Positions 28,488 through 47,062 are shown, numbered from the stretch's first letter. The stretch: 64,000 nt of DNA from Patescibacteria group bacterium (GCA_040384805.1 JAZKIP010000008.1:100749-164748), one strand, 5' to 3'. Made by a program: numbers and translations. The notes: a model not told the origin generated them from the sequence alone.

Positions 28488-28515
28488 ATTTTTATAATAC
28501 CATAACACGTTCGAT

Positions 28516-32610: not shown

Positions 32611-32846
32611 ATCTCGTTTAATTTTATCGCCATTCCCCAGCCGAGCTCTATGCCCTGGCCGGTTGAAGGAAAAGAAACTTCCGCGAGGACGAGATCTGAA
32701 TTCTTGATTTCTTCCTGGGTATTAATATTTTTATCATCTTTATGAGGGAAGAAAAAGGAATGTTCCGCAAAGACAGGGTCATTGAGAGGTTCGTAGAGGT
32801 CGGCAGTGAAATCGAAGTTTTGGGAGTGGGAGACGAAGATTTTCAT
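32568..32846 (-). CDS. nucleoside 2-deoxyribosyltransferase-like small Rossmann protein (tentative)
   Basis: DLVLAEVSFPSTGQGIELGWG resembles the NDT-like glycine-rich loop. This ORF overlaps the kinase frame. Confidence 0.35.
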   Translation of the reverse strand: MKIFVSHSQNFDFTADLYEPLNDPVFAEHSFFFPHKDDKNINTQEEIKNSDLVLAEVSFPSTGQGIELGWGMAIKLNEIWKTIAKWKHRVSQ

Positions 32847-32866
32847 CTCAGACTGTCTGCCAGTCA

Positions 32867-32904
32867 GGGAATCTCGATCCTTACAGGGTCAGTACACCCT
32901 TTCC
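32867..32904 (-). promoter_or_regulatory. conserved 5'-leader element, copy 1 (upstream of the NDT-like/APH pair)
   Basis: About 32 of 38 nt identical to 34979..35014. Confidence 0.4.
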
Positions 32905-32993
32905 ATTCGCAGAGTCAGGGACTCGGTCACAAGTATTTTTCTGCTGAAAAATCTCGCGACCCCGCCTCCTCCGACAAAAGTCGGAGTCCGGCT

Positions 32994-33013
32994 TTCGAGT
33001 CCCTGACCGGCAG
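32994..33013 (+). repeat. 20-nt exact copy of the tRNA-Gln 3' end (TTCGAGTCCCTGACCGGCAG), inverted relative to the tRNA gene at 46992..47062
   Basis: Direct sequence identity. Confidence 0.7.
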
Positions 33014-33131
33014 GCGCTTCGTTACACTCAGCTTTCTAGCTGGCCGTCTCGAGCTAGGACCTTTTGGTTCATTACCCTGCAAGGACGGTTTGATACTTTC
33101 CATTGTAACATTTCAACGCGTCTCGAGCGGC

Positions 33132-34139
33132 TTAAGATTTTTCAATAAACCTGCAGAGTTCTTGCCATACACCATCAGCAATCTCAATTTCGCCAGTTTT
33201 CTCGGCTTGTTTTGTACGTCGATCCCCTTTTTCACCTGGAAGTACCACTTCCTGTCCTGGAATAGGTTTTGCTGACTTAATGTGATTGACCAGTTCCCGA
33301 CTTCGTTTCATATACTCTTCTTTTCCTGCTAATAAACCAGGGTCAATTGCTAAAATAAATGTACCTGCTCCATCTGCTTCATGGGCACCTGGTATTCCGG
33401 CAAGAGAAAAAGCACTACCCATCAACTGCACAAAGAGAGATAGTCCAAAGCCTTTATGATCAGCAAACGTCTTTATGGCACCGCCTACTGATTCTCCATT
33501 TCCGCTTCCCATCACTTCCTCAGCGTTTGTAGTCGGTTCACCATCTGCATCGAGAGCTACACCTTCGGGAAGGGGCTCTCCTGTAAGCATTGCTTGGACA
33601 AGCCCAAAGTATGCAATCGCGGCAGTTGCATTGTCGAAGATAACTTCACCACCCTCATACGGAAATGCATACGCGAGCGGATTAGTCCCGAGCTTACGTT
33701 CAGCTGAACCAGTTGGTGCTACTGCTGCCCACCCACCATTACCGACACACATAAAACCGATATATCCTGCTTTCGATATACGACGAACAAAGTATCCAAT
33801 AGACCCAGAAGATGAATAAGTGTGATTGACACATGCTATACCAACTCCGTGCTGTTTGGCTAACTCTATCGCTTTATCTGCTGCTTTAGTAGTTGTCACC
33901 ATTGAGTGACCACCTGATAGGAGTACCCCGCACTTATTTTCTTTAACAACTTTAAATTCTTCTAGTTTAGTCGCAGGAGGTATTCCACCAGTGGCAATCT
34001 TCGCAATGCCTTGATTATTACCACGCATTTCTGCATAAAGAAGAGTGTCTATAATAATTCGAGCATCTTCACCTATATATCCAAGCTTATAAACACCGCT
34101 TTCTACTTTTTCTTTTAATTCTAGAATTTTGATTTTCAT
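33132..34139 (-). CDS. Ldh_2 family oxidoreductase (malate/L-lactate/L-sulfolactate dehydrogenase family)
   Basis: ADHKGFGLSLFVQLMGSAFS and overall length fit PF02615. Confidence 0.75.
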   Translation of the reverse strand: MKIKILELKEKVESGVYKLGYIGEDARIIIDTLLYAEMRGNNQGIAKIATGGIPPATKLEEFKVVKENKCGVLLSGGHSMVTTTKAADKAIELAKQHGVGIACVNHTYSSSGSIGYFVRRISKAGYIGFMCVGNGGWAAVAPTGSAERKLGTNPLAYAFPYEGGEVIFDNATAAIAYFGLVQAMLTGEPLPEGVALDADGEPTTNAEEVMGSGNGESVGGAIKTFADHKGFGLSLFVQLMGSAFSLAGIPGAHEADGAGTFILAIDPGLLAGKEEYMKRSRELVNHIKSAKPIPGQEVVLPGEKGDRRTKQAEKTGEIEIADGVWQELCRFIEKS

Positions 34140-34193
34140 TATTGCAAATTATAACATACATGAACTTCCTAAAATAATGATTCTCGAGCGCTA

Positions 34194-34907
34194 TTATAAA
34201 ATAGCCGCAAGTACTTCCCGATTTACTTTAACCCACTCGATCTGATTATGAAATTCAGTTACTTTCAAAGTAGAGAAAGCTCGTTCGTCTTCTGTTTTTG
34301 CGTTTATAGAGAGATTCTTGCGCATACTAAGTATGTGCTCTTGCTCTTTGATTAGAGACTCGACGAATTCAGGTCCATTATGAAAGTCATATGCATTGCT
34401 CATTAACTTAATCCTACGAATTTGTCTCTCTAAGGGAACATTGTCGCCTAAATTAAGAAATGTCCAAACTGCATACGCAAATTCATCAGAACGCTTACCG
34501 GGATGAGCACCATCAAAATCTATAATCCCAACAACTGCGTTGTTCTTAAAAATTAGATTCCACGGGGCAAAGTCATTATGACATACAACTTCATTTTCGC
34601 CTGCAAGATTGCTTCCAGCAGTAGAATTGTGAAATTCTCTCAATAGATCGGCTACTTGTGTTAACTGTTCATCTGTCCAGTTATTTTTTTCACGCAGAAC
34701 TTCTCCTTCGATAAAACTTAGTATCTCGCGGTTTTTATCATCTACACCCAAAAAGCGGGGTGCATAACTAAATCCCTTTTTTTCTAGGTGTTGTAAGAGA
34801 GAGTGGATGAAATCTGCATTAATCCCTTGCGGCCTATGTACAGTATTTTCAATTTGCACTATTCCTTCAGTTGATCTGCCTCCCAAAAGAGGAATTTCTG
34901 TATTCAT
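34194..34907 (-). CDS. APH family phosphotransferase
   Basis: HNDFAPWN and GIIDFDGAHPG motifs. Confidence 0.7.
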   Translation of the reverse strand: MNTEIPLLGGRSTEGIVQIENTVHRPQGINADFIHSLLQHLEKKGFSYAPRFLGVDDKNREILSFIEGEVLREKNNWTDEQLTQVADLLREFHNSTAGSNLAGENEVVCHNDFAPWNLIFKNNAVVGIIDFDGAHPGKRSDEFAYAVWTFLNLGDNVPLERQIRRIKLMSNAYDFHNGPEFVESLIKEQEHILSMRKNLSINAKTEDERAFSTLKVTEFHNQIEWVKVNREVLAAIL

Positions 34908-34978
34908 GCAATAATGATACCGCAATTAGAAGATAAGAAAAAGTATGCTCTTCGTGCTAGCAGAAGTTGACTACCGCA

Positions 34979-35014
34979 GGGAATCTCAATCCTTAGAGAA
35001 TCAGTACACCTTCC
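34979..35014 (-). promoter_or_regulatory. conserved 5'-leader element, copy 2 (upstream of the APH gene)
   Basis: gggaatctcaatccttagagaatcagtacaccttcc, aligned to copy 1. Confidence 0.4.
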
Positions 35015-35289
35015 GCGTCGGGTTCGCTTCGCTTCACGCGACATACTCAAAAACAATATCTCTTGATCAAAAGAAAAACTAAAACCATGATTATATCAGT
35101 TTTCTTAACATATGTGCTCTATATAGATTTAAGAAACATCTCCTAAAGATGTCTCGCTCAAGCGCACTAAAAAGTGACAAAAGTGACATACCCTAATACA
35201 TCTATTATAAATTGACAACTTAACCATTAATGTTAATATGTGCGACAAGGCTGGTAGTTTGCTAGTCCTTTCTAAATTATTAAATAATC

Positions 35290-36609
35290 ATGACATTTAA
35301 TTTCACCGAATTTGTCAACTTGCTCAAAGAGTATGTTGGCTATAAAAGCGTATCCACAGATAAAGCTTTTTCAGATGGCATAACCGCCACTGTTGTTTTC
35401 CTCAAATCCCTTTTTGAAAAGAATGATTTTAAAGTTTCCATCCTGCAGGGCCCGAACACTAACCCCGTGGTACTGGCTTCTTATCACAAATCTAACAACC
35501 TTAAAACGAAGTTGATTTATGGGCATTACGATGTTCAGCCGGCTTTGACAGGAGGCGGGTGGAAAGGAGATCCCTTTGTGCTTCGTGAAGAAGATGGGAG
35601 ACTGATAGGCCGTGGCGTCATGGATAATAAAGCGCAAAATCTTATCCACATATTCACGGCGCTGAAACTTATCAAAAATGGCACTTTGGGGTGCAATGTA
35701 AAGTTCCTGATCGAAGGGAATGAAGAAACCCAGAATCCGGACATGGCTGACCTGGTCCTGAAACATGCCGACGAATTAAAATGTGATGAGATTATCGTTT
35801 CTGATGGAGAAATCCTTGGAAGCACTCCTTGCATCGAAGAATCCCTGCGTGGCGGAGGTAACATAACGCTTACCTTCAAAACTGCAAAAAATAACCTTCA
35901 TTCCGGCGTTTACGGAAGCGGTATCCCGAACTCAGCAAAAGAAATGACCGCCTTTTTGGCAAAAATGCTGTTGCCTCATGGCCGGGTAGCCATACCTGAA
36001 TTCTATGATTCTGTTGATCCAATCAGCCAGGAAAAGGTTGCCAAGAATAAAGCGATGCTTGAAATTGACAATCCACTGGATGTAACCGGGGCAAAGAAAA
36101 CAATTGGCATACATGATTTCCATACCATGGTCGGTGTTTGGCCGGCTATGGAAATCAGCGGCCTGCTTTCCGGCTATACAGGCGAGGGTTATAGCAATAT
36201 AATCCCTGGAGAAACAATGGCAAAGATTAATGTTCGGCTGGTAGCCTCACAAACGAGCCATGCATTTGAAGAGATGTTCAGAAGATATGTGGAAGATAAC
36301 GTTCCAGACAGTGTTGACTACACTATATCTATGACCAAATTTTCACCGCCGGTTAAAGTCGATGTAACATCGCCGGAAATACAGAGAATAATGTGGCACC
36401 AGAAAAGGATTTACGGAAAAAAGCCTATTGTCAAAAATGTTGGCGGCGGAATTCCGATTGTAGCCGATTTCAAAGAAATCCTCGGCGTGGATGCCTTCTT
36501 GATCCCACTGGGTTGCAACGACAGCAATATGCATGGGGACGAAGAAAACATGCAGATCGATCTGCTTCAGAAAGGCCTGGAATTGAGCGAACAAATATTG
36601 ATGAATTAA
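35290..36609 (+). CDS. M20 family metallopeptidase (dipeptidase-like)
   Basis: YGHYDVQPA, GRGVMDNKAQN and IEGNEE motifs. Confidence 0.85.
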   Translation: MTFNFTEFVNLLKEYVGYKSVSTDKAFSDGITATVVFLKSLFEKNDFKVSILQGPNTNPVVLASYHKSNNLKTKLIYGHYDVQPALTGGGWKGDPFVLREEDGRLIGRGVMDNKAQNLIHIFTALKLIKNGTLGCNVKFLIEGNEETQNPDMADLVLKHADELKCDEIIVSDGEILGSTPCIEESLRGGGNITLTFKTAKNNLHSGVYGSGIPNSAKEMTAFLAKMLLPHGRVAIPEFYDSVDPISQEKVAKNKAMLEIDNPLDVTGAKKTIGIHDFHTMVGVWPAMEISGLLSGYTGEGYSNIIPGETMAKINVRLVASQTSHAFEEMFRRYVEDNVPDSVDYTISMTKFSPPVKVDVTSPEIQRIMWHQKRIYGKKPIVKNVGGGIPIVADFKEILGVDAFLIPLGCNDSNMHGDEENMQIDLLQKGLELSEQILMN

Positions 36610-36680
36610 AAAGGTTAAAAGATTGATTGCAAAAACTGATATGACGAAAGTCCTCTGTCAGTTTTTTATTTTTTACTTTT

Positions 36681-37328
36681 CTAGGTTTTCGACATATTAC
36701 TAGCGTATGGACCACCAAGGAATTTCTGCAATTCCAAAAGTTCTATTTGCAAGGCGCCTAAATCAAGATCACGCTCTGCATATGTATAAATTTTCGTCAT
36801 TGGATCATAATTACGCAGATGCAAAGCATTGGTACCTCCTTTTTCATTTTTATCACCGATAGTGAGATCACTCACAACACGACGGTCAGCATCACTGTTT
36901 TTGTGTTTCGGATATTCTTCATTTATCCATTTCACCATTCTTTGGTCGTAATGATCAAGATCATTTCTAAAAGACTTATTTTGAAGCAAGACGAACATTG
37001 GTATCTCGATTACATCGGCTAGATCTTTACCTATTTGCATACCAATAGTATCAACAAGATATTGACCTTTCTTGTCTTTAGAAGACCATAGGAGCTTCGA
37101 CACATTTGCACAGTGGGTTAAAAAAGAGTGTATCGAAGAGAATGTCAGAAGAATATTACCTTCGCCTTTCTTACTAATGTTATCGAACGCAGCAAGCGCA
37201 AAGAGAATCTGCATACTGATTTCTCTCTGTGCTTGCATAATAATGTAGTTTTGTAATTCAGTTAATTCTGACACAGTTTTCATATCTGAATTATAGATCT
37301 TCTGATTTCTTTTATCAAAAAGTGACAT
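36681..37328 (-). CDS. hypothetical protein (third gene of a coupled operon)
   Basis: 3-nt gap to the upstream gene. Confidence 0.5.
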   Translation of the reverse strand: MSLFDKRNQKIYNSDMKTVSELTELQNYIIMQAQREISMQILFALAAFDNISKKGEGNILLTFSSIHSFLTHCANVSKLLWSSKDKKGQYLVDTIGMQIGKDLADVIEIPMFVLLQNKSFRNDLDHYDQRMVKWINEEYPKHKNSDADRRVVSDLTIGDKNEKGGTNALHLRNYDPMTKIYTYAERDLDLGALQIELLELQKFLGGPYASNMSKT

Positions 37329-37331
37329 ATC

Positions 37332-38750
37332 CTAAGCCTTACTTGCAGAAGGTTTTTCTCGTCCATCGACAACAATGATCGTTGGATGCTTTTTACCTTC
37401 TTTTTCTTCCTCTTCTTCCATTCTAAGAACTTCTTCAAGAACTTTACTCTTCCCTATGACCTGAACCACCACAAAATAACTTGCTTTTGCTTCTTCACTT
37501 TCTTCGTAAATTCTAGTTTGCTTCTCGTAACCTTGTCGAACATGACCCGATGTGAGCTTTACTTCGACAATAATTTTTTCCTTATGACCAGTGCTTAGTT
37601 TAAAATCAACTGGCCCCTGTCCAGCATTGGATTCTGGAGAAATATCTATATCTGACGATTCGCAATACAGAAGAGCAGTCGCATAGAAAAAGTGTCGTGC
37701 ATGGCTTTCATTAAGAGGCTCCTTTGAATCATTATAAAGGGAACGCCAGCCACCCTTGGTTTCAATAAATTTCTTGAAGGCATTAATAATTTTTTGTACG
37801 ATTTCTTCTAGATCTTCTTTTTTCTTAGGCTTTGTAGGGATTGAAAGAGGATTCGCTTTTACCAATTCCTTAGCTTTTTCCGGCCATAGATAGAGACCTG
37901 CAGGATCGCTCTCAAAATCATACGCTTCAGGATTGCATGCTTGATATGCAGCAACCACGGTACTGATTCTATCTTTTGTCTCAAGAAGATATCGTCGAAT
38001 CTCCGATTTCTTCGGTTTCTTCCCGTCCTTCTGGGTAAAACAGGCTGCAAGAATTGAATTAAATTTCTGCCTTAGCTCATCATTAAAAGCAGCAACAACA
38101 CTGATATCTTCAAAGCTGGTAGCGAGCGGCAAATCCCGAAGAATTCCCTGTGGAAGGAAAATAAGGGGTCCGTCTTTTAAAGGATGTTTCGCAAGGGTGT
38201 AATTATGCTCACAGGTCTTCTGTATAAAAATTTCTTTAATTTTAAGTTCTTTTGTCACTCTTTCAGAGTATGTATATATTCTATGTAGCAGTATACGAAT
38301 GAGCCCATCACTTAAACGGTCAGGTCCGAAATCTTCTTCAAAAAGTCCCATGACCTCAAAGATAGCTGGGTCATTTACACCCATTTTGATAAGTTCTTCA
38401 GCGGTTAACATTAAATGTCTAGCCAACTCAGGACCTATGGCTGAACCGTCGTCTCTTTTATTACCGTAACCTATACCAATTCCACGAACTTCACGGAGAA
38501 TCAATTTTTTATGCGCTGCTTCTCTTGCTTTCTTGTTTTCAGTGCGTAAGAGAGTTATAACACCTGAGAAATAAATCCGTACCTCAGCGAGTGCATCTTT
38601 AAATTCAGGTACCTTAGTCTTAGACAGAAGAAGAGAATCGACGAAAAATAAGCTATCAACCCCAATAACAGGGTTGAATGCTCCAGACTTTGCGTACGCA
38701 GAATCAGATATTCCAAAATATTCACTTGCCCGTTTAAGCTTCTGATTCAT
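37332..38750 (-). CDS. hypothetical protein with C-terminal PD-(D/E)xK nuclease-like motif
   Basis: CESSDID...GPVDFKL...IIVEVKL, i.e. an E...D...ExK arrangement. Confidence 0.5.
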   Translation of the reverse strand: MNQKLKRASEYFGISDSAYAKSGAFNPVIGVDSLFFVDSLLLSKTKVPEFKDALAEVRIYFSGVITLLRTENKKAREAAHKKLILREVRGIGIGYGNKRDDGSAIGPELARHLMLTAEELIKMGVNDPAIFEVMGLFEEDFGPDRLSDGLIRILLHRIYTYSERVTKELKIKEIFIQKTCEHNYTLAKHPLKDGPLIFLPQGILRDLPLATSFEDISVVAAFNDELRQKFNSILAACFTQKDGKKPKKSEIRRYLLETKDRISTVVAAYQACNPEAYDFESDPAGLYLWPEKAKELVKANPLSIPTKPKKKEDLEEIVQKIINAFKKFIETKGGWRSLYNDSKEPLNESHARHFFYATALLYCESSDIDISPESNAGQGPVDFKLSTGHKEKIIVEVKLTSGHVRQGYEKQTRIYEESEEAKASYFVVVQVIGKSKVLEEVLRMEEEEEKEGKKHPTIIVVDGREKPSASKA

Positions 38751-38752
38751 AA

Positions 38753-38998
38753 CTAGTATTTTTTATCAACAGGAGGAGTGGGGTCATTACCGGGAGCAAC
38801 GGTATCTTTGTCTCTTATTGGTCCACCATTTGGCTTGTGTATAACCACTTCTCCACCACCAGAATTAGCTGATAATTCTTTTGCAATTTTTTCTGCTTCT
38901 TTCTGAGTATCAACAAGTACAGAAGCACGATCTGCGCCTTCTTTTAAAACTTTCCATTTATCTGATCCTTTCGGATTTGTTACATGATAATTAGACAT
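38753..38998 (-). CDS. DUF2188 domain protein
   Basis: YHV..P.G..WKV.KEGA.RAS...DT..EA...A.......EVVIHK.NG.IRDKDT...GNDP.PP. Confidence 0.7.
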   Translation of the reverse strand: MSNYHVTNPKGSDKWKVLKEGADRASVLVDTQKEAEKIAKELSANSGGGEVVIHKPNGGPIRDKDTVAPGNDPTPPVDKKY

Positions 38999-39059
38999 AT
39001 TTCCCTTTTATAGATTAATTAATAAAAAATCTAAATTAATTATAAACTCCCGTTAAAAT

Positions 39060-39800
39060 TTATCTATATCTCCGACCCCTTGCCATATAGCATGATATGT
39101 TAGTTAATTTAGATTTCCTTTATCTCCTATTTGCTAACTTAATCATATGGTACGGAAATCAAGAATCGACAAAGGAGGACTTTACTACCGTGTTTATAAC
39201 AAGGCATGTTGGGACAAAACTTTATTTGAGAATGAAGATGATTTCAGGATAGTAAAAGAAAAATTTTCAGAGGCAAAAAGTGCAACGAAAATGAGAATAC
39301 TTGCTTATTGCTTTATGCCAGATCACTTCTATCTTATTCTTTATCCCGTTAATGACGGTGATATGAGAAAGTTTATGCAACTTGCTATTGGCGCGCATAC
39401 GCACTGGTGGCATAGAATGCACAAAACATCTGGATCAGGTCCTATATATAAAGGCAGGTATAAATCTGAGATTATTCCAGAAGACCAGTTGTCTCAACAA
39501 ATAGAGGAAGTAGAAAGTTGCCCTGTAAGGGACAAGTGCGCAGAGACACCTGTGGAATATAAACACTCAAGTGCATCAGCACGCGTTGAGAAAGATTTTA
39601 TGCTGCTTACTAAGTAGCCATGAAGAAAATTTTTCATTTGACTGATTATCCATAACGTAGCATAATTAAACATATTCCCCCACTACACTTTCTAATTTTA
39701 TGATATATTCAGGATAGCCGAACATTTAAATTTTAAAAAAACTGGTTCTCCCGCGTAAAGATTCCTCCTCTATTATAGAGAGGAGGAATATAGACAACGG
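39060..39800 (+). mobile_element. possible IS200-like element with flanking hairpins (extent uncertain)
   Basis: tnpA-like gene, an AT-rich inverted repeat upstream, and a perfect hairpin attcctcctctat-tata-tagagaggaggaat at 39760..39792. Confidence 0.3.
39147..39617 (+). CDS. IS200/IS605-family (Y1 HUH) transposase-like protein / REP-associated tyrosine transposase-like
   Basis: HUH motif AHTHWWH, Tyr in IYKGRYKS, and an ILAYCFMPDHFYLIL core. Confidence 0.6.
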   Translation: MVRKSRIDKGGLYYRVYNKACWDKTLFENEDDFRIVKEKFSEAKSATKMRILAYCFMPDHFYLILYPVNDGDMRKFMQLAIGAHTHWWHRMHKTSGSGPIYKGRYKSEIIPEDQLSQQIEEVESCPVRDKCAETPVEYKHSSASARVEKDFMLLTK

Positions 39801-39975
39801 GGAACAAAACCGATATAGGCTATAGAGAGTCCGTATCATTAACTTACAAACTGGTGCTCAAACTTAAACTTGTGGGAAAATGATAGGCTCATCTCCTTTC
39901 AAAATACCCACGAGTTTAGATTCGTGGGTATTTTGTTCGGCAGGCGATATTACTATTAAAAACTGTTTTAAGCGT

Positions 39976-41247
39976 ATGACTACGTTAAAGGTGATGTGGA
40001 GGGTAGAGATCAGGAAAGTAAATGAGTTGGTTCCGTGGAGTGAAAATCCGCGGAAGATAACAAAGGAAGCTTTTAATAATTTGAAACGAAAGGTTGAAAG
40101 GCATGGTTTCCATAGCGTGATTGTGATCGATGTTGATAACACGATCATCTCTGGAAATCAACGAAAGGATGTACTTATTGAACTCGGAATCGATGAGGTG
40201 AACGTATTGGTACCGGACCGTAAGCTGACCGATGAAGAAAAAAGGAAAATCGCATTGGAAAGCAACATTAACGATGGCGAATGGGATTTTGAAAAATTGA
40301 AGTCATTTGATTTAGGAACATTGATGGATGTGGGTTTTGATGAAGACAGCCTGTCGAATATGTGGGCGGAAAATTTGGAAGCGGAAGATGATTCCTTTGA
40401 AGTCGAGAAAGAGCTTGCCGAGATTACCGAGACAACAACCAAGCTCGGCGACCTCATCATCATGGGCCCTCATCGGTTGATATGCGGGAATACGCTTGAT
40501 CCGGAAGTCCTTAAAAAGCTTTTCGGTGACGAGAGAGCATCGGTAATATACAGTGATCCTCCGTATAACATCTCGCTTGATTACAACAAAGGCATTGGCG
40601 GGAAGCAGCAGTATGGCGGAAACGTAAACGATGATCGATCATATACCGAATACAAGGAATTCTTGCGCCAAAGTATGGCCTGCGCTCTCTCCGTATCACA
40701 ACCCGATACGCACATGTTCTATTGGTCCGACCAGACATATATAGGGCTGATCCAAGAACTCTATCGCGAACTCGGGATAGAGAACAAGCGGGTATGCTTG
40801 TGGATCAAGAACTCGCAGAATCCTGTACCGGGCGTGGCATTCAATAAATGCTACGAACCGTGTACCTATGGACTGCGAGGGCATCCGTATATTGAAAAGA
40901 GCATTAACAATCTTAATGAAGTGATGAACAAAGACATCACGACGGGTAATGATTTGATGGAAGAGGCGTTAGATCATTTAGACTTATGGTTTGTTAAACG
41001 GCTTTCCGGTAAGGAGTACAGGCATGCGACCAGCAAGCCGCCGCGGCTGCATAACAAAGCGATACGTCGCTGTTCCAAAGTCGGGGATATTATTCTCGAT
41101 TCCTTCTCTGGATCGGCAAGTACCATGATTGCAGCACACCAATTGAAGCGAAGAGTATTCGCGGTCGAATTAGAACCAGCATTCTGTGATCTAGCTATTA
41201 AGAGATACGAAGCTCTGACTGGCGAGAAAGCAGAAATAATCCGATAA
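39976..41247 (+). CDS. ParB-like nuclease domain fused to N6-adenine/N4-cytosine DNA methyltransferase
   Basis: An N-terminal ParB-like motif run from ELVPWSENPRK to ISGNQR; motif IV SDPPYN and motif I DSFSGSASTM. The track's N-terminal extension overlaps a strong hairpin, so the start was taken at the ATG at 39976. Confidence 0.85.
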   Translation: MTTLKVMWRVEIRKVNELVPWSENPRKITKEAFNNLKRKVERHGFHSVIVIDVDNTIISGNQRKDVLIELGIDEVNVLVPDRKLTDEEKRKIALESNINDGEWDFEKLKSFDLGTLMDVGFDEDSLSNMWAENLEAEDDSFEVEKELAEITETTTKLGDLIIMGPHRLICGNTLDPEVLKKLFGDERASVIYSDPPYNISLDYNKGIGGKQQYGGNVNDDRSYTEYKEFLRQSMACALSVSQPDTHMFYWSDQTYIGLIQELYRELGIENKRVCLWIKNSQNPVPGVAFNKCYEPCTYGLRGHPYIEKSINNLNEVMNKDITTGNDLMEEALDHLDLWFVKRLSGKEYRHATSKPPRLHNKAIRRCSKVGDIILDSFSGSASTMIAAHQLKRRVFAVELEPAFCDLAIKRYEALTGEKAEIIR

Positions 41248-41252
41248 CGCCT

Positions 41253-41834
41253 ATGAAAAAAGAAAGAATTCATGAAGCTTTAATTGAACAGCTTAGGAAA
41301 GTGCCGATTTTGCAAGTTGCATGCGAGAAATTAAATGTTTCCAGAAATACGGTCTATACATGGAGGAAACAAGATAAAGAATTTCGTATTGCGATGGATA
41401 AAGCCTTTGCTGAAGGTGATGCGCTTGTTAATGATATGGCTGAAAGTCAGATGATAAGTCTTATGAGAAAAGGAAGCTATCCTGCGAATGCTTTTTGGCT
41501 TCGCGCACGACACCCGAAGTTTAAGAAAGACAATTCCGTTCATATAAAAGTTGCGCCAACAAAAAAATATATTCTTCCTATTACCACCACGGAAGCTTTC
41601 GACAAAGTCAGGCTCAGTAAGCTGCCGAAACAACTCCGTAAGAAAGTCATAAGAAAGGAAATGAAGCTCAGCGATGCTATGGGTGAGGTTTTCGACAAGA
41701 TCCATGAAGAAATGGGGATGGAAATGCCGAAGGATCTTAGAAAAATAAGCTTACCCTTAGGTAGCGTTCTCAAAACAATCTTAGAAGAAGATCAGGATCC
41801 TCATGAAGACGAGAACGGAATCGAAAGATTTTAA
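41253..41834 (+). CDS. HTH domain protein (phage-associated type)
   Basis: ACEKLNVSRNTVYTWRK helix-turn-helix. Confidence 0.4.
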   Translation: MKKERIHEALIEQLRKVPILQVACEKLNVSRNTVYTWRKQDKEFRIAMDKAFAEGDALVNDMAESQMISLMRKGSYPANAFWLRARHPKFKKDNSVHIKVAPTKKYILPITTTEAFDKVRLSKLPKQLRKKVIRKEMKLSDAMGEVFDKIHEEMGMEMPKDLRKISLPLGSVLKTILEEDQDPHEDENGIERF

Positions 41835-42637
41835 AAAGAAATCTTAAACTCTTCCTTAACGAATTCTAAAGTCTTCTGTTGATCCTGAAGCGATGCCTTC
41901 ACAAGCTGCGTGGTGAAGAGGCCTGTCTTGGCTTTCCATTTGGCATCCTTCGCATCAACCGCTTCGATCCATTGGATGCTGATGAGGTAATCGCAGTTGT
42001 CATTGTCGCTGTTTCGGAAGAGACCAGTCGATTTCAGAGGGAGATCCCGGAGAGATTTCCCGTTGTATCGGAATTCTTCAACCGGGACAGCCTTCCCTGT
42101 CACCCTTCCAACGCCGACATACCCGTGATTCTTGAGATATGCCACAACGATATCGTCCTTGTTAAGCGTCCTGATCTGATCGCTCCACTTCTTGTCCTGT
42201 CCTGCGGCCAGGAAGCCGTATCTCTTGCAGTCTTCCCAGAGACGGTTAGATGTGCGGTCTTGGCCGACATTGACGTAGTAGATGTCGTTTTTAAAGTCAA
42301 AGCCCGGGAGATCGTCGCGATAGAGGCTGTAGTGAGGCCTGAACTTCTTGGCGAAGTGGCCCGAGGATTTGTTGGTCAGAGTCCTGCCGAGTTTCCAGAT
42401 GAGGGTTTTCTCGATGAGGAAAGCTTCCCTCTCCGTGAGGTCTTTGGCGATAACCCGAATGATGGGCTGAAGTCCGAGTTTCTGGATGGCTTTGATCCGT
42501 TGCGACTTCTCCGAATCGCTGTCGTCTTTGAGATGAGCGTTCTTGCGATTGCCCTTCCCTTTGCCGTAGTAGAAATCCTCGAAGTTGCGGGGATCTATAT
42601 AGACGTAGACGTAATAGTCTTCATTCACGTTCTTCAT
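41831..42637 (-). CDS. GIY-YIG nuclease with a C-terminal domain of unassigned fold
   Basis: YYVYVYIDPRN...FYYGKGKGNRKNAH...E GIY-YIG core. The C-terminal ~140 aa (DDIVVAYLKNHGYVGVGRV) could not be assigned to any domain family by eye. The gene is GC-rich. Confidence 0.65.
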   Translation of the reverse strand: MKNVNEDYYVYVYIDPRNFEDFYYGKGKGNRKNAHLKDDSDSEKSQRIKAIQKLGLQPIIRVIAKDLTEREAFLIEKTLIWKLGRTLTNKSSGHFAKKFRPHYSLYRDDLPGFDFKNDIYYVNVGQDRTSNRLWEDCKRYGFLAAGQDKKWSDQIRTLNKDDIVVAYLKNHGYVGVGRVTGKAVPVEEFRYNGKSLRDLPLKSTGLFRNSDNDNCDYLISIQWIEAVDAKDAKWKAKTGLFTTQLVKASLQDQQKTLEFVKEEFKISF

Positions 42638-42644
42638 ACATCAT

Positions 42645-42926
42645 CTATGAATTTGAAGAAGGATCTTTCTTTGCGCCGTAATAATGGAAGCACAGGAGTA
42701 TCACTCCGAGGAAAGCGGCTCCGAATCCGAGATTGATTCCGTTTTGTCGGTCGCTCATAAGGCCGAGGTTGTTCACTCGTCCGCTTCCGATTATCTCCCC
42801 CATGAACTCCCGCTGAGGAACGGCAACCGAGGTGTCGAAGAAGAGTAGGAAATAGATACCTGTTGCTAATCCAAACAGAAGAAGAACAATACCTGTTCCC
42901 CACAAAAACGTAACGTCTTTATTCAT
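42645..42926 (-). CDS. small membrane protein
   Basis: Two TM helices. Confidence 0.4.
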   Translation of the reverse strand: MNKDVTFLWGTGIVLLLFGLATGIYFLLFFDTSVAVPQREFMGEIIGSGRVNNLGLMSDRQNGINLGFGAAFLGVILLCFHYYGAKKDPSSNS

Positions 42927-43253
42927 GCAAAATTCTTTTGCGTTTAGGAGTAATTACCGGTGATGAGACGCAAAAAGCCCACCACAGGTAGAGACCGAGG
43001 CCTCTCATATCCGTTTCCAGATACGGCGGATCACGCAACCCTGTGATGGGTTTTTTAAGCATGATCCGACTTTTGACCATATCCTTAGAAATTCCAAGGG
43101 GTTAGGTCGCTATTAAATTGTATCTACATAATACGATATTTTATCGTATTACTCTACCCTATCGCAGATCACTTTATTTGTTAAGGTAGTTACCAACATG
43201 TTGCCAACAGTTCATGTCTTAGCAAAAGGCTCTTTCTCTGTCATTAATTAAAT

Positions 43254-44573
43254 ATGGAAACACAATATATAAATAATCTTGGTGTTAAAACCGAAGTACC
43301 ACGCATAAAGGTTAAGTACGTTCTGTATGCTCGTAAATCAACAGAATCGGATGAGAAGCAAGCTCTATCAATTGAATCGCAAGTAAAAGAGATGCTCACT
43401 ATCGCCGATCGTGACAGTCTTGAAATTGTAGACATTAGGAGAGAATCACACTCGGCCAAAGAGTCTGGACAGAGACCAGTATTTAAAGAATTACTTGATG
43501 ATGTTCGTAGAGGTAGATATACAGGAATACTTACATGGGCACCTGATAGATTGAGCAGAAATGCAGGTGACCTCGGATCTGTCGTGGACCTTATGGATGA
43601 GAATAAGTTAATAGAGATTAGAACATACGGGCAACACTTTAAGAATTCACCCAATGAGAAATTCCTTTTAATGATTCTTTGTAGTCAAGCAAAACTTGAG
43701 AATGATAATAAAAGTATCAATGTGAAGCGAGGACTACGAACAAGATGTGAAATGGGATTAAGACCCGGCCCTGCTCTTTTCGGATATTTTAATGTAAAAC
43801 ATGCAGACAAGAAATGTCAGGTAATTCTTGATCCTGAACGAGCACATATCGCTAAGAAAATGTTTGAGAAAGTAGCCTACGAGAAATGGAGCGGTCGAAA
43901 GATATATCACTGGCTAAAATTTGATCTCAATTTAAAGACAAGGAACGGAAACAAAGGTTTAACTCTAGGAAATATTTATCTTATTCTCCAGAGTCCTTTC
44001 TATTACGGAGTCTTCGAGTATCCCCACAAAAGCGGAAACTTCTATAAAGGTAGACATGAACCTCTAATTACTAAGGAGTTATTTGACCAAGTACAACTAC
44101 AAGTTAAAAGCCAAGTTATTCGATCTGAAAGTAAAGAATTCGCCTTCACTAAATTAATGATATGTGGTCTATGCGATTCTGGTATATGTGCAGATGAGAA
44201 GTTTAAAAAACTTAAGAACGGAGGTGTAAATCGATATGTTTACTATGGATGTACTAAATCGAAAGATAAGAATTGTAAAGGAGGTTATATTGAAGAAAAA
44301 GAACTTATTAAACAATTTGAAGATTTGATTGAGATTATCAGTATTGATGAGATTGGAATAAAAGAAAGGATTAGAACCGAAGTTGAGAGAATAAAAAAAT
44401 TTAATAGTATGCTACTGGGAGTAAAAGATCAAGTCTGCGTAGAAGATATCGACATTAAAAACTACGCAAAGTATTTACTTCGAGAAGGAAAGGATATTGA
44501 AAAACGAGAATTATTGTCTTGCTTTAAAAGTAAGATAGAATTAAAAAATAAAGCTATTATTCTTATAAATTAG
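43254..44573 (+). CDS. large serine recombinase
   Basis: Resolvase catalytic region YARKSTESDEKQ, a recombinase domain, and a Cys-rich zinc ribbon. Confidence 0.9.
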   Translation: METQYINNLGVKTEVPRIKVKYVLYARKSTESDEKQALSIESQVKEMLTIADRDSLEIVDIRRESHSAKESGQRPVFKELLDDVRRGRYTGILTWAPDRLSRNAGDLGSVVDLMDENKLIEIRTYGQHFKNSPNEKFLLMILCSQAKLENDNKSINVKRGLRTRCEMGLRPGPALFGYFNVKHADKKCQVILDPERAHIAKKMFEKVAYEKWSGRKIYHWLKFDLNLKTRNGNKGLTLGNIYLILQSPFYYGVFEYPHKSGNFYKGRHEPLITKELFDQVQLQVKSQVIRSESKEFAFTKLMICGLCDSGICADEKFKKLKNGGVNRYVYYGCTKSKDKNCKGGYIEEKELIKQFEDLIEIISIDEIGIKERIRTEVERIKKFNSMLLGVKDQVCVEDIDIKNYAKYLLREGKDIEKRELLSCFKSKIELKNKAIILIN

Positions 44574-45348
44574 TCATTTCAACTTCTAGTAAGTTTAGAT
44601 TGTCAGCAATATCTTGATAACTATTAATACCAGTAATTAAGCGAATTTCATCTATGTATCGTGTTGTTAAACGAATATGAAAAATTGTAGCAATCATAAG
44701 TGCTTGGCGTAGATAGAAATTGCTCGCAACATCAGCTTCTTCTTTGCTCATATAACTTTTAACAATCATTGGACTGACGTGATTTAAACGACAACCCCAT
44801 ATATATGCTTGGCCAATACGAGAAGAATCAAAATCTTTTAAATGACCTGCTTCATGTAGTATCTCCACCATTTTATCTACGGATATTCCTGCCCAACTAT
44901 GTCGACTTTTTGCATCAGGACTAAGAGTATTATAATTTTTCTCAGCATCTTCGACATCGAGATTTAAATCATCATTTTGGTCGGCTGGGTTTTGTCCTAT
45001 GGATTTTAAGAATTCAATCTCATCATGAATTTCCTTAAATAAATGATTTTGGAACTGCACTGCCATTTTATCTTTTCCTTTCCAAAGCATATATTCAACA
45101 GAAATTCCGTATTCAATAATTTTTCTTGTTAAATCCAAACAACTAGAACCCGTGTCATCGTTGTTTGAAAGATAATAGATATCTCTCAGTGTTCCAAACG
45201 AAACTCTATAAATACCAAGGAGTACGTTTACAAAATTAGCATTCGATGGCGAACTAGCTCCAGCAAGTGGCTCAGTAACTTTTAGAGTCTTTTCAAGAAT
45301 ACCTTTTAATTTTTGTTCCATATTGTTAGTCAAAAATTCTTTTATCAC
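44563..45348 (-). CDS. hypothetical protein (operon partner)
   Basis: Overlaps the upstream gene by 23 nt. Confidence 0.5.
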   Translation of the reverse strand: MIKEFLTNNMEQKLKGILEKTLKVTEPLAGASSPSNANFVNVLLGIYRVSFGTLRDIYYLSNNDDTGSSCLDLTRKIIEYGISVEYMLWKGKDKMAVQFQNHLFKEIHDEIEFLKSIGQNPADQNDDLNLDVEDAEKNYNTLSPDAKSRHSWAGISVDKMVEILHEAGHLKDFDSSRIGQAYIWGCRLNHVSPMIVKSYMSKEEADVASNFYLRQALMIATIFHIRLTTRYIDEIRLITGINSYQDIADNLNLLEVEMTNL

Positions 45349-46609
45349 TATTTAACACTTCAGGCGGAAACTTTTTCCACTTTCCTTTTGTGGTAGAAAC
45401 CATATGTCTTAATATCATAGTGTCGCCAGCATCAGAATCAAAGGTATCAGAAGAATCGATGGGTTTACCTTCTTTAACAAATTTTTTAATTTCTTCAGAT
45501 ACTGCTTTTTCTGCTTCAGGATTAATTTTATCTGTGCCATCGAATTTTCTAATATGATCCTTTATGTTTCTCCAGGATTCTGACATATATTTATCCCATA
45601 ATTGAGTCGTTAAAAATGATAGATCATCGGGTGGGCATGGTGCAAATACTACTGATCCTCTATTTTTAACTTCATCAGGTAATGTTTCGTAATGAGAATC
45701 TAATTTAGAAAAATCACTTTTCAAATCTGTACCTGAAATGAATGTTTGATCAGTGCGCATAAAAATAGGTGCGAGTGCTATATGTATCTTATCACTCGAG
45801 GTGAATATATTACAAAATGGAAGATAATATAAGTATGCAATATCAACCTTATGCGTTGCAGGATGACGAAACGCTTCAAAAAGCTTAGCTGCAGTTCCCA
45901 TATAATAGAACAGATCAATAGAAAGAACATATGAAAAGTAAGGTGCGTATTCTCTTATAGGCTTACATCCGTCTTTTTCCCATTCCTTTAAAATTTTTTC
46001 TTGTGCTGTTGGTAAAAGTCCCATTTGCGACATCCACGCAACAAATGGTGCTTTTTCTTTAATCATATCAACTATTCCATCAACTTTTTCTTTTAGTTCT
46101 TGGAAAGTTTTCGGCTTACCTACCAGATCGAACATCTTTTGGAAACCTTCGTAGTTTTCTTCTTTCATCTCTGATAATTCTTGCCGCCATTCTTTAGCCT
46201 CATTTCTTTCTATTTCTAAAAATTGTTTTTTCTCCCAACGATGAGCAGCTTCCACTTCGGGAGGTTCTTGAAATATTACTCCTGTTTTACCACCAAGCTC
46301 AACATATTCTCCGTAAGAAATTACTGGTCTACCTGACATTTCAATTTTAGCTTTATTCATAAGCTCACTTGCTATTAGACTTCTGTGATGAACATTCACA
46401 CAACCCATATCAGGAGTTTTGTGTGCAATACTACCTACAATATCTTCAGGTGTTCTACCTAAACGAACTTCTTTTTCAAGATCAGCTAGAGTCTCCACAA
46501 AAAATAATGGTGTTATATTTGTGATGAAGAAATTTTCAAGCCACATGGATTCGTCTGCGCTCAATCCTTGTAATGCTGATTTATCAAATATAAGTGTTGG
46601 CCCTGTCAT
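45326..46609 (-). CDS. hypothetical protein
   Basis: 427-aa ORF with no recognisable motif. The N-terminus (TLIFDKSALQGLS) bears a weak, unassigned resemblance to a PIN-type start (interpretive reading, not a motif match). Confidence 0.45.
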   Translation of the reverse strand: MTGPTLIFDKSALQGLSADESMWLENFFITNITPLFFVETLADLEKEVRLGRTPEDIVGSIAHKTPDMGCVNVHHRSLIASELMNKAKIEMSGRPVISYGEYVELGGKTGVIFQEPPEVEAAHRWEKKQFLEIERNEAKEWRQELSEMKEENYEGFQKMFDLVGKPKTFQELKEKVDGIVDMIKEKAPFVAWMSQMGLLPTAQEKILKEWEKDGCKPIREYAPYFSYVLSIDLFYYMGTAAKLFEAFRHPATHKVDIAYLYYLPFCNIFTSSDKIHIALAPIFMRTDQTFISGTDLKSDFSKLDSHYETLPDEVKNRGSVVFAPCPPDDLSFLTTQLWDKYMSESWRNIKDHIRKFDGTDKINPEAEKAVSEEIKKFVKEGKPIDSSDTFDSDAGDTMILRHMVSTTKGKWKKFPPEVLNSDKRIFD

Positions 46610-46694
46610 AAACCTATTTTAACACTTATGATTAAGTTAAACTAAAAACACCTTAATTAGGTGCTTTTAGTTTTAGATATAGTTTAGATATTTA

Positions 46695-46913
46695 TTATTT
46701 GAGATTCTTGCGAGCCTGTTTCATAATCTTTTCTCGACCCTCGCTTGGATCTACTTTCGTTGCAGCAGCAATAAGAGCTTCTTTCACTGCTTGTTTCTTC
46801 TCATCAGGAAACTCTTTCTGTAGTTGCTTTACCGCATAATCAACTTCATATTTTTCTTTAAAGCTAATTAGATAACTATCTGGTTTACCAGTTTTCTTTT
46901 TATTGTCTGCCAT
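46695..46913 (-). CDS. DUF3606 domain protein
   Basis: The EKYEVDYAVKQLQKEF...QAVKEALIAAATKV pattern. Confidence 0.5.
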   Translation of the reverse strand: MADNKKKTGKPDSYLISFKEKYEVDYAVKQLQKEFPDEKKQAVKEALIAAATKVDPSEGREKIMKQARKNLK

Positions 46914-46991
46914 AATTTCTATATTATACCACAGAACTAAAGCTAGTTTCTAAACGACGTATCTCGAGCGCGATAACTGCGCTCTTGTTTG

Positions 46992-47062
46992 CTGCCGGTC
47001 AGGGACTCGAACCCCAATACCATCCTCCAGAGGGATGTGTCCTACCATTAGACGAACCGGCA
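46992..47062 (-). tRNA. tRNA-Gln (anticodon CTG)
   Basis: Manual cloverleaf: acceptor TGCCGGT/ACCGGCA with U1-A72 and G73, D arm GTCT/GGAC, anticodon loop CTCTGGA, and T loop TTCGAGT. Confidence 0.85.

Follow-up and report, generated by a model that had tools for sequence, protein, structure and literature searches.

Elements mobilised by large serine integrases (phiC31, Bxb1, A118 and TP901-1; Ccr of SCCmec; TndX of Tn5397) share an architecture of resolvase domain with catalytic serine, recombinase domain and zinc ribbon, and they recombine at dyad-symmetric sites around a central dinucleotide, leaving no long direct repeats and integrating in a fixed orientation. Folded single-strand recombination sites are used by the CTX-phi attP(+) and integron attC systems, while tRNA-like minihelix ends occur in the tRNA-like domain of tmRNA, in mascRNA and in viral tRNA-like structures. 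The end of a tRNA gene is the typical target of tyrosine integrases and, to our knowledge, an uncommon one among serine integrases. Among the prophages of M. abscessus, 10 of 15 tyrosine-integrase attB sites overlap tRNA genes (PMC8092301).

Here we describe a locus in an uncultured Paceibacteria (CPR) bacterium, contained in a stretch of 64,000 nucleotides (the window), where a large serine recombinase (LSR) lies behind a tRNA-Gln gene. We read the interval as an integrated mobile element of ~13.95 kb (~33041-46993) that was inserted by the LSR beside a module already standing behind tRNA-Gln, and we assign this reading a probability of about 0.78. Overall, the island would be of an ordinary type with an unusual target, accompanied by an undescribed tRNA-linked structured module. 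The features are as follows, in window coordinates.

32857-32925, minus strand: 3′ arm of the module, made of the 12-mer CGAGTCCCTGAC (32925-32914), a nested piece of the second module type (GGAAAGGGTGTACTGACCCTGTAAGGATCGAGATTC) and then CCCTGACTGGCAG
32926-32993, minus strand: module core, with AGCCGGA, hairpin 1, GAGGCGGGGTC and hairpin 2 (GTCGCGAGATTTTTCAGCAGAAAAATACTTGTGAC), from alignment A2 and the fold
32994-33013, minus strand: the inverted 20-mer, 5′ arm of the module's closing helix, reading CTGCCGGTCAGGGACTCGAA on the tRNA strand
33014-33038, minus strand: 25-nt spacer TAGAAAGCTGAGTGTAACGAAGCGC, putative original host sequence after tRNA-Gln (B′ side)
33039-33140, minus strand: far-end block P (...GTCCTTGCAGGGTAATGAACCAAAAGGTCCTAGCTCGAGACGGCCAGC), ending at 33039, with the predicted crossover CA at 33042/33041
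33132-34139, minus strand: Ldh_2 dehydrogenase, metabolic cargo (Pfam)
34194-34925, minus strand: APH-family kinase, metabolic cargo (Pfam)
34969-35012: partial module copy within the element (repeat D4)
35290-36609, plus strand: M20 peptidase, metabolic cargo (Pfam)
36681-38998, minus strand: operon encoding DUF2188 (PDC-S16), a protein of 472 aa (phrog_30194) and an orphan of 215 aa; cargo candidate, defence or phage (Pfam, PHROGs, PADLOC)
39020-39810, plus strand: probable nested insertion sequence (IS200-like) with flanking hairpins at 39027-39116 and 39745-39805 (inverted repeats I21 and I4)
39147-39617, plus strand: IS200-like Y1 transposase gene (Pfam Y1_Tnp, 28.7 bits, E = 1.6e-6)
39880-41247, plus strand: ParB-N6/N4 DNA methylase, backbone gene common to relatives
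41253-41834, plus strand: small-terminase-like (terS-like) HTH protein, backbone gene common to relatives
41831-42926, minus strand: 93-aa ORF, starting 53 nt past LOOT, then GIY-YIG nuclease (41831-42637); PADLOC PDC-S11/PD-T4-3
42990-43108, minus strand: LOOT RNA (RF03000), divergent from the LSR gene and 146 nt upstream of its start
43254-44573, plus strand: LSR, 439 aa, with Resolvase, Recombinase and Zn_ribbon_recom domains and the motif YARKST
44563-46913, minus strand: variable cargo between recombinase gene and tRNA (Pfam, PHROGs, PADLOC)
44563-45348, minus strand: DUF5677 protein (Pfam)
45326-46609, minus strand: 427-aa orphan
46695-46913, minus strand: 72-aa ORF
46955-46992, minus strand: near-end arm P′, G73 followed by CAAACAAGAGCGCAGTTATCGCGCTCGAGATACGTCG, with a hairpin inside, homologous to the post-tRNA-Gln sequence in other LSR loci
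46992-47062, minus strand: intact tRNA-Gln(CTG) (ARAGORN, with ARAGORN/Rfam starts at 46991/46992; Rfam tRNA, 52.8 bits)

An earlier note on this DNA had drawn attention to a 20-mer of the tRNA-Gln 3′ end repeated in inverted orientation at 32994-33013, and both its coordinates and its identity are confirmed: TTCGAGTCCCTGACCGGCAG is found at 32994-33013 (+) and 46992-47011 (−), it covers the tRNA from the opening base of the T-loop through the discriminator G73, and these two inverted copies are the only matches in the window with up to 3 mismatches, where shuffled sequences lead one to expect 0.00. The refuting condition set by the earlier note holds by half: the 20-mer itself is not dispersed, whereas inverted tRNA 3′-end copies do recur as a class behind tRNA-Gln, Thr, Asp and Arg in relatives. 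An independent Logan unitig (run SRR26324625) is 100% identical to 34237-32946 and crosses both the island edge and the inverted 20-mer. Overlooked by the earlier note were an exact 12-mer in direct orientation, CGAGTCCCTGAC, just past the inverted copy at 32925-32914, and a degenerate direct 21-mer, TCGAGATTCCCTGACTGGCAG, at 32877-32857; a 34-nt relative of the latter stretch lies inside the island at 34977-35010 (repeat D4, 88% identity). The gene content that the note had read from the sequence, namely a serine recombinase, an IS200-like gene, a ParB-methyltransferase and a nuclease, was matched by domain searches. The catalytic domain of the LSR (PF00239, E = 4.8e-20) carries its nucleophilic serine in the motif YARKSTESDEKQ (residues 25-36), and the C-terminal part contains PF07508 (E = 4.1e-14) and a zinc ribbon (PF13408, E = 2.8e-6).

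In a survey of its relatives, 80 metagenome loci were collected through the recombinase alone, with no tRNA criterion, the LSR homologs being 70-83% identical. A tRNA gene was present downstream of the LSR gene, on the opposite strand and 1.2-9.3 kb away, in 25 of the 80 loci (tRNA-Gln in 19; tRNA-Ser, Trp, Asn or Phe in 6), and upstream of it in 0/80; wherever a survey locus held both, the LSR gene was transcribed toward the tRNA. The same arrangement was found independently via pyrG in L011, L030 and L031 (tRNA-Gln) and in L012 (tRNA-Ser), so that the orientation of the LSR relative to the nearest downstream tRNA is identical in 29 loci (25 metagenome and 4 pyrG) and in the window. This multi-locus survey backs the earlier note's view of an accessory, recombinase-borne island anchored at tRNA-Gln. 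The order of the backbone genes is constant among loci, with ParB-methylase homologs at the same relative position in 51 loci and terS-like genes in 49; the element family is common in Paceibacteria, its backbone consisting of ParB-methylase, terS-like gene, (large terminase), LOOT and LSR, together with variable cargo. Locus L094 also carries TerL (E = 1.5e-76) and a CI/LexA-like repressor; as regards a complete tailed prophage, the window element has no TerL, and a weak terS-like match was the only one, no structural-protein families being recognised. In the slot of the large terminase of relatives stands the pair at 41831-42926. Homologs of the DUF2188 gene occupy the same relative position in L094, L123 and L098. 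No homologs of the 44563-46913 cargo, of the IS200-like gene or of the Ldh_2, APH and M20 genes were found in other LSR loci. The metabolic genes, beside which the partial module copy lies, are thus peculiar to this member, and a portion of 33132-36609 may have had a history of its own.

Comparison of these loci also delimits the element. Directly after the tRNA, about 20 LSR loci have the near arm in common (CAAsTyGwGmTAG...GCwCGAGAyGCGTC), where loci without the element have a different sequence, and a homologous far block, likewise in about 20 loci, always stops at ...GCCAGC (...GGCCAGC, 33039, in the window), beyond which the loci diverge. P is joined directly to P′ in L101, L090, L097, L119 and L166, and the joined ends form an attP-like imperfect dyad centred on a CA that matches C71-A72 of the tRNA; this same CA was the best dyad centre in 5/5 reconstructions. 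Out of 25 positions, 15 are symmetric in L094, 14 in L101 and L090, 13 in L123 and 10 in the window. The core shared by attL and attR is short (~CAGC). From the joined-ends dyad it follows that the element extends from ~33041 to 46993, so that the limits proposed earlier, 32994-47062, come within ~30-70 nt of the ends without being the exact ends, and the search for a recombinase target, also proposed earlier, yielded the conserved P and P′, which are predicted to recombine with the end of tRNA-Gln. The bounds of the element, its target preference and its orientation are shown by this analysis. As to the exact base, the crossover is probably at C71-A72 (46994/46993) on the attL side, since conservation stops there and the dyad is centred on it. 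When occupied and empty sites are compared, the sequence beyond the far end of L104 (CAAAAAATAGAATCGC...) is that found right after tRNA-Gln in the element-free L005 and L048. For the window's own species no empty site turned up; L003 and L004 (80-82% pyrG identity) share the pyrG side only. In the element-free L074 a 23-nt spacer separates the tRNA from the inverted copy, the same geometry as the 25-nt spacer of the window. On the far side there is partial synteny: in L029 the homolog of 28011-28508 comes just after the tRNA-Gln mini-element, and in L068 it is located 4 kb beyond the tRNA. Between far end and module, locus L094 contains one more direct copy (40 nt) of the 3′ half of the tRNA, which we explain as an older scar, as in L009, L022 and L060; a crossover in the anticodon loop at that locus is a possible alternative. 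With regard to present mobility, the attP of the window shows the lowest symmetry of the five and its near arm deviates from the consensus of the family; this copy may be fixed in place.

LOOT is a constant companion of the recombinase. The window copy matches the model over its full length (positions 1-121; 77.9 bits against a gathering score of 46.4), and 36 of the 45 LOOT-model matches in LSR loci are in the same position beside the LSR gene. Across the family it is divergent from the LSR gene, 124-201 nt upstream of it, and lies ~40-70 nt ahead of a conserved unannotated ORF, a placement that suggests a leader or switch within the LSR element family. Rfam lists RF03000 as an sRNA, the motif coming from Weinberg et al. 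(2017; PMC5737381), and we met no statement of its function. LOOT may be a dedicated regulatory part of this tRNA-Gln-targeting family.

The inverted 20-mer sits 27 nt outside the element and belongs to a module of ~157 nt, in which the tRNA end, copied in inverted orientation, is followed by a conserved core and then by a copy in direct orientation, the direct tRNA-end copies at 32857-32925 being parts of it. The window module folds with −86.8 kcal/mol (z = −8.1), the opposite strand with −74.8. Our model R2 scored 119 bits on the window core and found 11 further copies. Both-sided changes were seen in 17 of 23 core pairs, counted on an alignment that had been fitted to the model, and 91.9% of the cells were paired, against 35-50% in slid controls. 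Modules occur behind tRNA-Gln with no LSR element between (L074, L004, L068, L009), past the far end of an element (the window, L094, L126 and the L074 mini-element) and also behind tRNA-Thr, tRNA-Asp and tRNA-Arg, with arms that match each tRNA. The closing helix pairs TGCCGGT-CAGGG with CCCTG-ACCGGCA-G, strands that are the acceptor and T-stem strands of the adjacent tRNA, including U1-A72 and G73. The stretch GGTGTACTGnnnCCTGTAAGGA..GAGATTC had resembled a tRNA half in decay, but it is a motif conserved among modules and occurs behind tRNA-Thr too. A search of 32500-33400 against 4227 Rfam models returned nothing relevant at E up to 10, and the module copy of L063 gave tRNA and chance-level matches only. 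The homology and covariation of the module are direct observations; that it is a structured transcript of the tRNA strand, and that with its closing helix it mimics the stacked acceptor and T-stem of the tRNA next to it, is what we infer. Members may be RNAs that are processed like tRNAs, or attachment sites formed by a folded single strand. Tentatively, at somewhat below even odds, we propose that they constitute an undescribed Paceibacteria family (behind Gln, Thr, Asp and Arg tRNAs, with co-evolving arms copied from T-loop to discriminator of their own tRNA) and that LOOT is a regulatory part of the LSR family.

According to the history that we favour, the tRNA-Gln gene would originally have been followed by ~25 nt and then by the ~157-nt module, which would already have consisted of the inverted T-loop-to-G73 copy, a two-hairpin core and the direct copy, the two copies pairing to close the fold. 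The LSR would have joined the attP of the element, an imperfect dyad of far block P and near arm P′ centred on CA, to the very end of tRNA-Gln, with exchange predicted in the acceptor stem, at the CA of positions C71-A72. Such an exchange would have the element supply only G73 onward, leaving the tRNA whole and creating no long direct repeat, and the insertion would have displaced the module 14 kb from the tRNA. The window copy has since lost the large terminase, and its near arm has diverged. Its cargo is defence-like and metabolic, an IS200-like gene is nested in it, and in all probability it is what remains of a decaying prophage or satellite.

The earlier note had taken the 20-mers for att-like repeats and had suggested an invertible segment or an island rearranged after integration. 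A perfect 20-nt inverted repeat does flank the interval, and a serine recombinase is encoded inside it, but that the LSR flips the 14 kb between the 20-mers, or that a direct-repeat island was later inverted, is barely credible. The recombinase's own sites are the conserved P and P′ arms; the 20-mers were rejected as crossover sites, the far one lying outside the element as part of the hairpin module. Moreover, attL (B-P′, beside the tRNA) and attR (P-B′, with P at 33039-33140) are ordered as in relatives, gene order and LSR orientation agree across the 29 loci and the window, so that no inversion is needed, and the inverted copy also stands right behind tRNA-Gln where no island intervenes. 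Quite improbable, too, is a classical tyrosine-integrase island in which the copies at 32857-32925 and 34969-35012 are decayed attR sites of successive integrations and the LSR is a passenger. Direct partial copies of the tRNA-Gln 3′ half are common downstream of the gene (L009, L022, L027, L057, L060, L071), which indicates that other integrations also use this site; nevertheless, no island ORF of at least 70 aa has a Pfam match to a tyrosine recombinase family, the supposed scar is the module motif found behind tRNA-Thr as well, and the unbiased survey ties the LSR family to tRNAs.

Unlikely, although deserving some weight, is a DNA-level reading of the module as the relic or miniature of an element that integrates as folded single-stranded DNA, like CTX-phi attP(+) or integron attC: two inverted target copies, separated by ~70-170 nt, would pair to give a duplex att site, and the LSR element would have landed in that array later. 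The product expected, tRNA end, body, inverted copy, loop and direct copy, corresponds to the observed order with the spacer as body. Consistent with this, in every genome the arms follow the tRNA present there, type-2 modules terminate, whatever the tRNA, in GAGATTC and then T-stem and acceptor sequence derived from the target, and tandem modules occur in L071 and L074. Against it, no recombinase is associated with the modules, the 'body' measures just 23-75 nt, and the closing stems of the L007 and L042 copies resemble no tRNA; a G-U pair kept in 7/10 copies and a fold favoured by 12 kcal/mol on the tRNA strand agree with a transcript, but also with one DNA strand.

With the integrated LSR element as the preferred reading, a mobile-element family widespread in CPR/Paceibacteria genomes is now delimited, and a concrete attP/attB pair is predicted for a serine integrase that targets a conserved tRNA end; the site being short and conserved, it could be useful. 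The orphan LOOT RNA gains a fixed genetic context that makes its role open to experiment, and the module, with arms copied from the tRNA, a strongly covarying core and nothing corresponding to it in Rfam, is a candidate for a new RNA or DNA motif of organisms with very small genomes. For the calling of island boundaries there is a caution, as what looks like an inverted att repeat may be a tRNA-linked structure that was there beforehand.

Compared with known serine-integrase elements, the family is alike in domain architecture, attP-like dyad, fixed orientation and freedom from long direct repeats, but it targets the final base pairs of a tRNA gene, its LSR gene lies 1-9 kb from the element end with cargo between, LOOT is a constant neighbour and the hosts are CPR bacteria. 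Tyrosine-integrase islands (P4-like, SaPI/PICI-like) are similarly anchored on the 3′ side of a tRNA, in hot spots with layered scars and tandem elements, and are likewise small, with a terS-like gene, a repressor (here in relatives) and defence-like cargo; the present element differs in having no tyrosine integrase, and no long tRNA 3′ segment is rebuilt in the window. CTX-phi attP(+) and integron attC resemble the module in that inverted target-like copies roughly 70-170 nt apart form a hairpin and in that the locus layout fits an integration product, whereas the module has no linked Xer or IntI-type enzyme, its core is conserved in sequence and covaries, and some closing stems are unrelated to tRNA. 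As for tRNA-like minihelix ends, the module has no T-loop, its helix running through the T-loop bases and enclosing 70-170 nt; yet that closing helix is made of the acceptor and T-stem strands of the adjacent tRNA. Finally, LOOT agrees with the described RF03000 motif in being a full-length match above the gathering score in a CPR genome.

The 20-mer TTCGAGTCCCTGACCGGCAG occurs in the window at 32994-33013 on the plus strand and at 46992-47011 on the minus strand, as the earlier note had described; it is absent elsewhere in the window even at three mismatches, and the shuffle expectation is 0.00 matches. The second copy indeed forms the 3′-terminal part of a tRNA-Gln(CTG) that is intact, beginning at the first base of the T loop and ending with G73, and the named gene content (a large serine recombinase, an IS200-like transposase, a ParB-methyltransferase, nucleases and orphan operons) is present in the interval. 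A Logan unitig from run SRR26324625, which is independent of this assembly, agrees with 34237-32946 at every base, which shows that the junction is no peculiarity of the assembly. Comparison of CTP synthase (pyrG) places the window within Candidatus Paceibacteria/Nomurabacteria, in the CPR lineage, with best relatives 80-83% identical. Many relatives share the order tRNA-Thr, prfB, ftsE, ftsX, pyrG, a LOG-like gene and tRNA-Gln, and the DNA beyond tRNA-Gln varies between the genomes of the relatives fetched through pyrG; tRNA-Gln is therefore a boundary of variable DNA. No empty site was found for the window's own species, whose flank proteins, in an exact-protein look-up, are unrecorded or lie on window-identical Logan unitigs of 1-4.6 kb. 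Base composition was rejected as a boundary marker, since GC content fluctuates between 0.32 and 0.53 over the full window and does not shift abruptly at the element ends.

The recombinase (439 aa; 43254-44573, plus strand) has the domains of the large serine recombinase (LSR) family and the catalytic YARKST motif. Four of the loci fetched through pyrG carry homologs: tRNA-Gln lies 1.1-4.8 kb downstream of the homolog in L011, L030 and L031, and in L012 the homolog adjoins tRNA-Ser. To remove the pyrG bias, we took the recombinase itself as the query and obtained 80 metagenome loci (70-83% identity). In 19 of them the opposite strand carries tRNA-Gln (CTG or TTG) downstream of the recombinase gene, at a distance of 1.2-9.3 kb, and 6 have another downstream tRNA (Ser, Trp, Asn or Phe); none of the 80 has a tRNA upstream of the gene, and in several the contig stops right at the tRNA. 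Judged from these sequences, the recombinase family appears to target tRNA-Gln. Among more distant homologs, L012:5160-5407 holds, 1.6 kb from the 62%-identical recombinase, two inverted tRNA-Ser-like genes separated by 70 nt, one of which has an unusual anticodon, ACT. The viral contig L085 (61%-identical recombinase) has no tRNA and carries at 7220-7256, 2.6 kb downstream of the recombinase gene, a perfect palindrome with 16-nt arms and T-loop-like ends, TTCGAATCCCTTAGTG-ATGAA-CACTAAGGGATTCGAA.

Both ends of the element are conserved within the family. The bases directly behind the tRNA (the near arm, P′) are conserved in LSR-bearing loci, for example CAACTTGAGCTAGCTCAAAGATAG and CAAGTCGTGCGAGGTTATCCCGCACGAGACGCGTCG, and differ in most loci with no recombinase within reach; the window's near arm, AAACAAGAGCGCAGTTATCGCGCTCGAGATACGTCG, has diverged. 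The opposite end (the far block, P; 33039-33140 in the window) is a stretch of about 100 nt conserved in about 20 loci with the terminus ...GGTTCTAGCTCAAGGACGCCAGC, which reads ...GGTCCTAGCTCGAGACGGCCAGC in the window, at 33039, and beyond which the sequences of the loci diverge. Beyond the far block of L104, the sequence CAAAAAATAGAATCGC... equals that directly behind tRNA-Gln in the element-free loci L005 and L048, so that an occupied site can be compared with empty ones. In five further places (L101:1650-1850, L090:2950-3150, L097:1-230, L119:430-600 and L166:2400-2560) the far block is joined straight to the near arm as P-CAGC-P′, which indicates tandem elements or attP itself in assembled circular forms, with the attP sequence read directly. 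When far block and near arm are joined, all five reconstructions have their best dyad axis at the same CA (the L094 site is CTAGCTCAAG-GACGCCAGCCAA-CTTGAGCTAG), with 15 of 25 positions symmetric in L094, 14 in L101, 14 in L090, 13 in L123 and 10 in the window, and this CA lines up with tRNA positions C71-A72. On the basis of the conserved ends and the dyad centre, the element would extend from about 33041 to 46993. Its attL would be the tRNA joined to P′, and its attR P joined to the 25-nt spacer at 33014-33038; the empty attB is predicted to run from tRNA-Gln through GCTAGAAAGC... into the inverted copy, with 46994 joined to 33040. In L094, an additional 40-nt direct copy of the tRNA half separates the far end from the folded module described below; it resembles small scars in L009, L022, L027 and L060, and the crossover in this locus may have been a different one.

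L029:9846-10924 (about 1.0 kb) and L074:12151-12806 (about 0.65 kb) are miniature derivatives that keep both LSR-element ends and have no recombinase. A short scar recurs behind tRNA-Gln in L009, L022, L027, L060 and L094 (1555-1640), made up of about 26 nt resembling TTTGnAnnAAAAnAGnAAATAGG and then 35-43 nt that repeat the 3′ half of the tRNA in direct orientation from near the anticodon; it points to a second integration system at this tRNA. In L003:12560-13400, tRNA-Gln is flanked by two small GIY-YIG (UPF0213-like) ORFs, each beside tRNA-Gln-like fragments; homing-type insertion into this hot spot may account for them.

The accessory island proposed in the earlier note is thus real, given the tRNA link of the recombinase family and the conserved element ends. 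The reading of the inverted 20-mer as an att-like repeat does not hold: it lies 27 nt outside the element and belongs to a module that is also found without the island, and the inverted copy is present where no island parts it from the tRNA. An invertible segment, as had been suggested, is very unlikely: the recombinase's own arms are in canonical arrangement; gene order and orientation to the nearest downstream tRNA are identical in the window and in 29 of 29 loci holding both recombinase and tRNA. A tyrosine-integrase island is unlikely, because none of the island's ORFs of 70 aa or more matches a tyrosine recombinase family. We also discarded our initial idea of a palindromic attB, formed by the tRNA end and the inverted copy and split by the insertion: the dyad is centred on the CA within the tRNA and not halfway between tRNA and inverted copy, and L104, taken with L005 and L048, shows that integration occurs at module-free sites too.

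The module to which the inverted 20-mer belongs spans about 157 nt. On the tRNA strand, 33013-32857 folds with -86.8 kcal/mol (z = -8.1), the inverted copy pairing with a distal direct copy and enclosing four hairpins, and the fold of the opposite strand is 12 kcal/mol weaker. The direct-orientation copies just past the inverted 20-mer, an exact 12-mer at 32925-32914 and a degenerate 21-mer at 32877-32857, had been overlooked. The same layout (tRNA, a 23-75-nt spacer often with a terminator-like hairpin, inverted copy, 70-170 structured nt, direct copy) is found behind tRNA-Gln in L074, L004, L068 and L009 with no LSR element between tRNA and module; removal of 33041-46993 from the window yields the geometry of L074. 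The module also lies just past the LSR-element far end in L094, L126 and the 0.65-kb mini-element of L074. Modules with the inverted and direct 3′ strand of the local tRNA stand behind tRNA-Thr(GGT) in L003, L029, L037 and L021, behind tRNA-Asp in L004, L010, L063 and L071, and behind tRNA-Arg in L092, the arms matching each tRNA. Copies outside the window are located as follows:

L003:5058-5200, module copy
L029:127-270, module copy
L021:407-545, module copy
L063:1508-1680, module copy
L071:1450-1780, module copy

The core in the window, AGCCGGA, hairpin, GAGGCGGGGTC, hairpin, aligns with the copies behind tRNA-Thr (L021) and tRNA-Asp (L063). A covariance model built from the core alignment found 12 copies in the 166 loci and the window; the closing stems at L007:4354-4440 and L042:2960-3052 are unrelated to any tRNA. 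Seventeen of 23 core pairs have changed on both sides and 91.9% of cells are paired, versus 35-50% with slid partners, counts that lean toward structure because the alignment was fitted to the model; one core G-U pair persists in 7 of 10 copies. No Rfam family matched the module. It may act as RNA or as folded DNA. The stretch GGTGTACTGACCCTGTAAGGATCGAGATTC, with its look of a decayed tRNA half, is a second conserved motif of the modules and recurs behind tRNA-Thr (L003, L029) and tRNA-Gln (L049). A tmRNA, pseudo-tRNA or known RNA at 32850-33020 was dismissed for want of a match with ARAGORN or Rfam. From the sequence, a retroelement primer-binding site was also rejected: TGG does not precede the inverted copy, which is therefore not complementary to a CCA end, and a reverse transcriptase is lacking.

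A 34-nt relative of the degenerate direct-copy stretch lies inside the island, at 34977-35010. The partial module copy around it (34969-35012; 88% identity to 32865-32898) has a target-like tail, CCCTGCGGTAGTCA, that does not match tRNA-Gln, and stands just upstream of an APH-family gene. The outside module copy also precedes an APH-family gene (31930-32610); a segmental duplication of gene and repeat was rejected, as identity between the two kinases is no higher than about 30%, over 57 residues. The tRNA-Thr(CGT) at 52998-53072 alone precedes prfB in the window, and L003, L004, L011 and others have an additional tRNA-Thr(GGT) before prfB, often with a module behind it.

The backbone common to the recombinase loci consists of a ParB-methylase (51 loci), a small-terminase-like protein (49 loci) and the recombinase. 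The remaining island genes have no counterparts in these loci, except for DUF2188 in three, and are cargo. L094 adds a large terminase (E = 1.5e-76) and a CI/LexA-like repressor to the backbone, and between its recombinase and tRNA it carries four large ORFs that we take to resemble a type I restriction system. The large terminase is absent from the window island, which thus looks like a decayed prophage or satellite, and with this loss and the diverged near arm its present mobility is doubtful. The ORF at 41879-42736 was rejected as a terminase remnant, having no similarity to the L094 TerL, as was homology of the window's GIY-YIG nuclease to the T5orf172 nuclease of L094, since these two are not similar either. 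Candidate anti-phage families in the cargo are DUF2188 (PDC-S16; within 36681-38998) and the GIY-YIG protein (PDC-S11/PD-T4-3; 41831-42637); a 472-aa protein in the former segment matches PDC-M36A weakly and phrog_30194 over its full length. Metabolic genes unique to the window element lie, with the partial module copy, within 33132-36609. The segment 39020-39810, an IS200-like Y1 transposase gene between hairpins 39027-39042/39101-39116 and 39745-39771/39779-39805, is probably a nested insertion sequence; the ends of IS200/IS605 elements likewise carry hairpins.

Near the recombinase gene, the window contains a LOOT motif (Rfam RF03000; 42990-43108, minus strand), and a model built from four copies finds matches in 47 of 90 LSR sources. 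In 36 of 45 examined matches LOOT lies 124-201 nt upstream of the recombinase start and divergent from it; its place beside the gene is near-constant in the window, L082, L083, L094 and 40 other loci. It usually stands about 40-70 nt ahead of a same-strand ORF, 23 of which form one unannotated family with no Pfam match, which suggests that LOOT is a leader or switch and not a free sRNA. A role as guide for the att site was rejected, since across 12 loci LOOT neither matches nor complements the tRNA end or the near arm in any consistent way. The literature consulted lists the motif without a function. The genetic context for LOOT and the tRNA-linked structured module are the most interesting products of the analysis. 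The island itself, a serine-integrase element, is of a kind already described; the terminal base pairs of a tRNA, which it has as its target, are an uncommon choice in this class.
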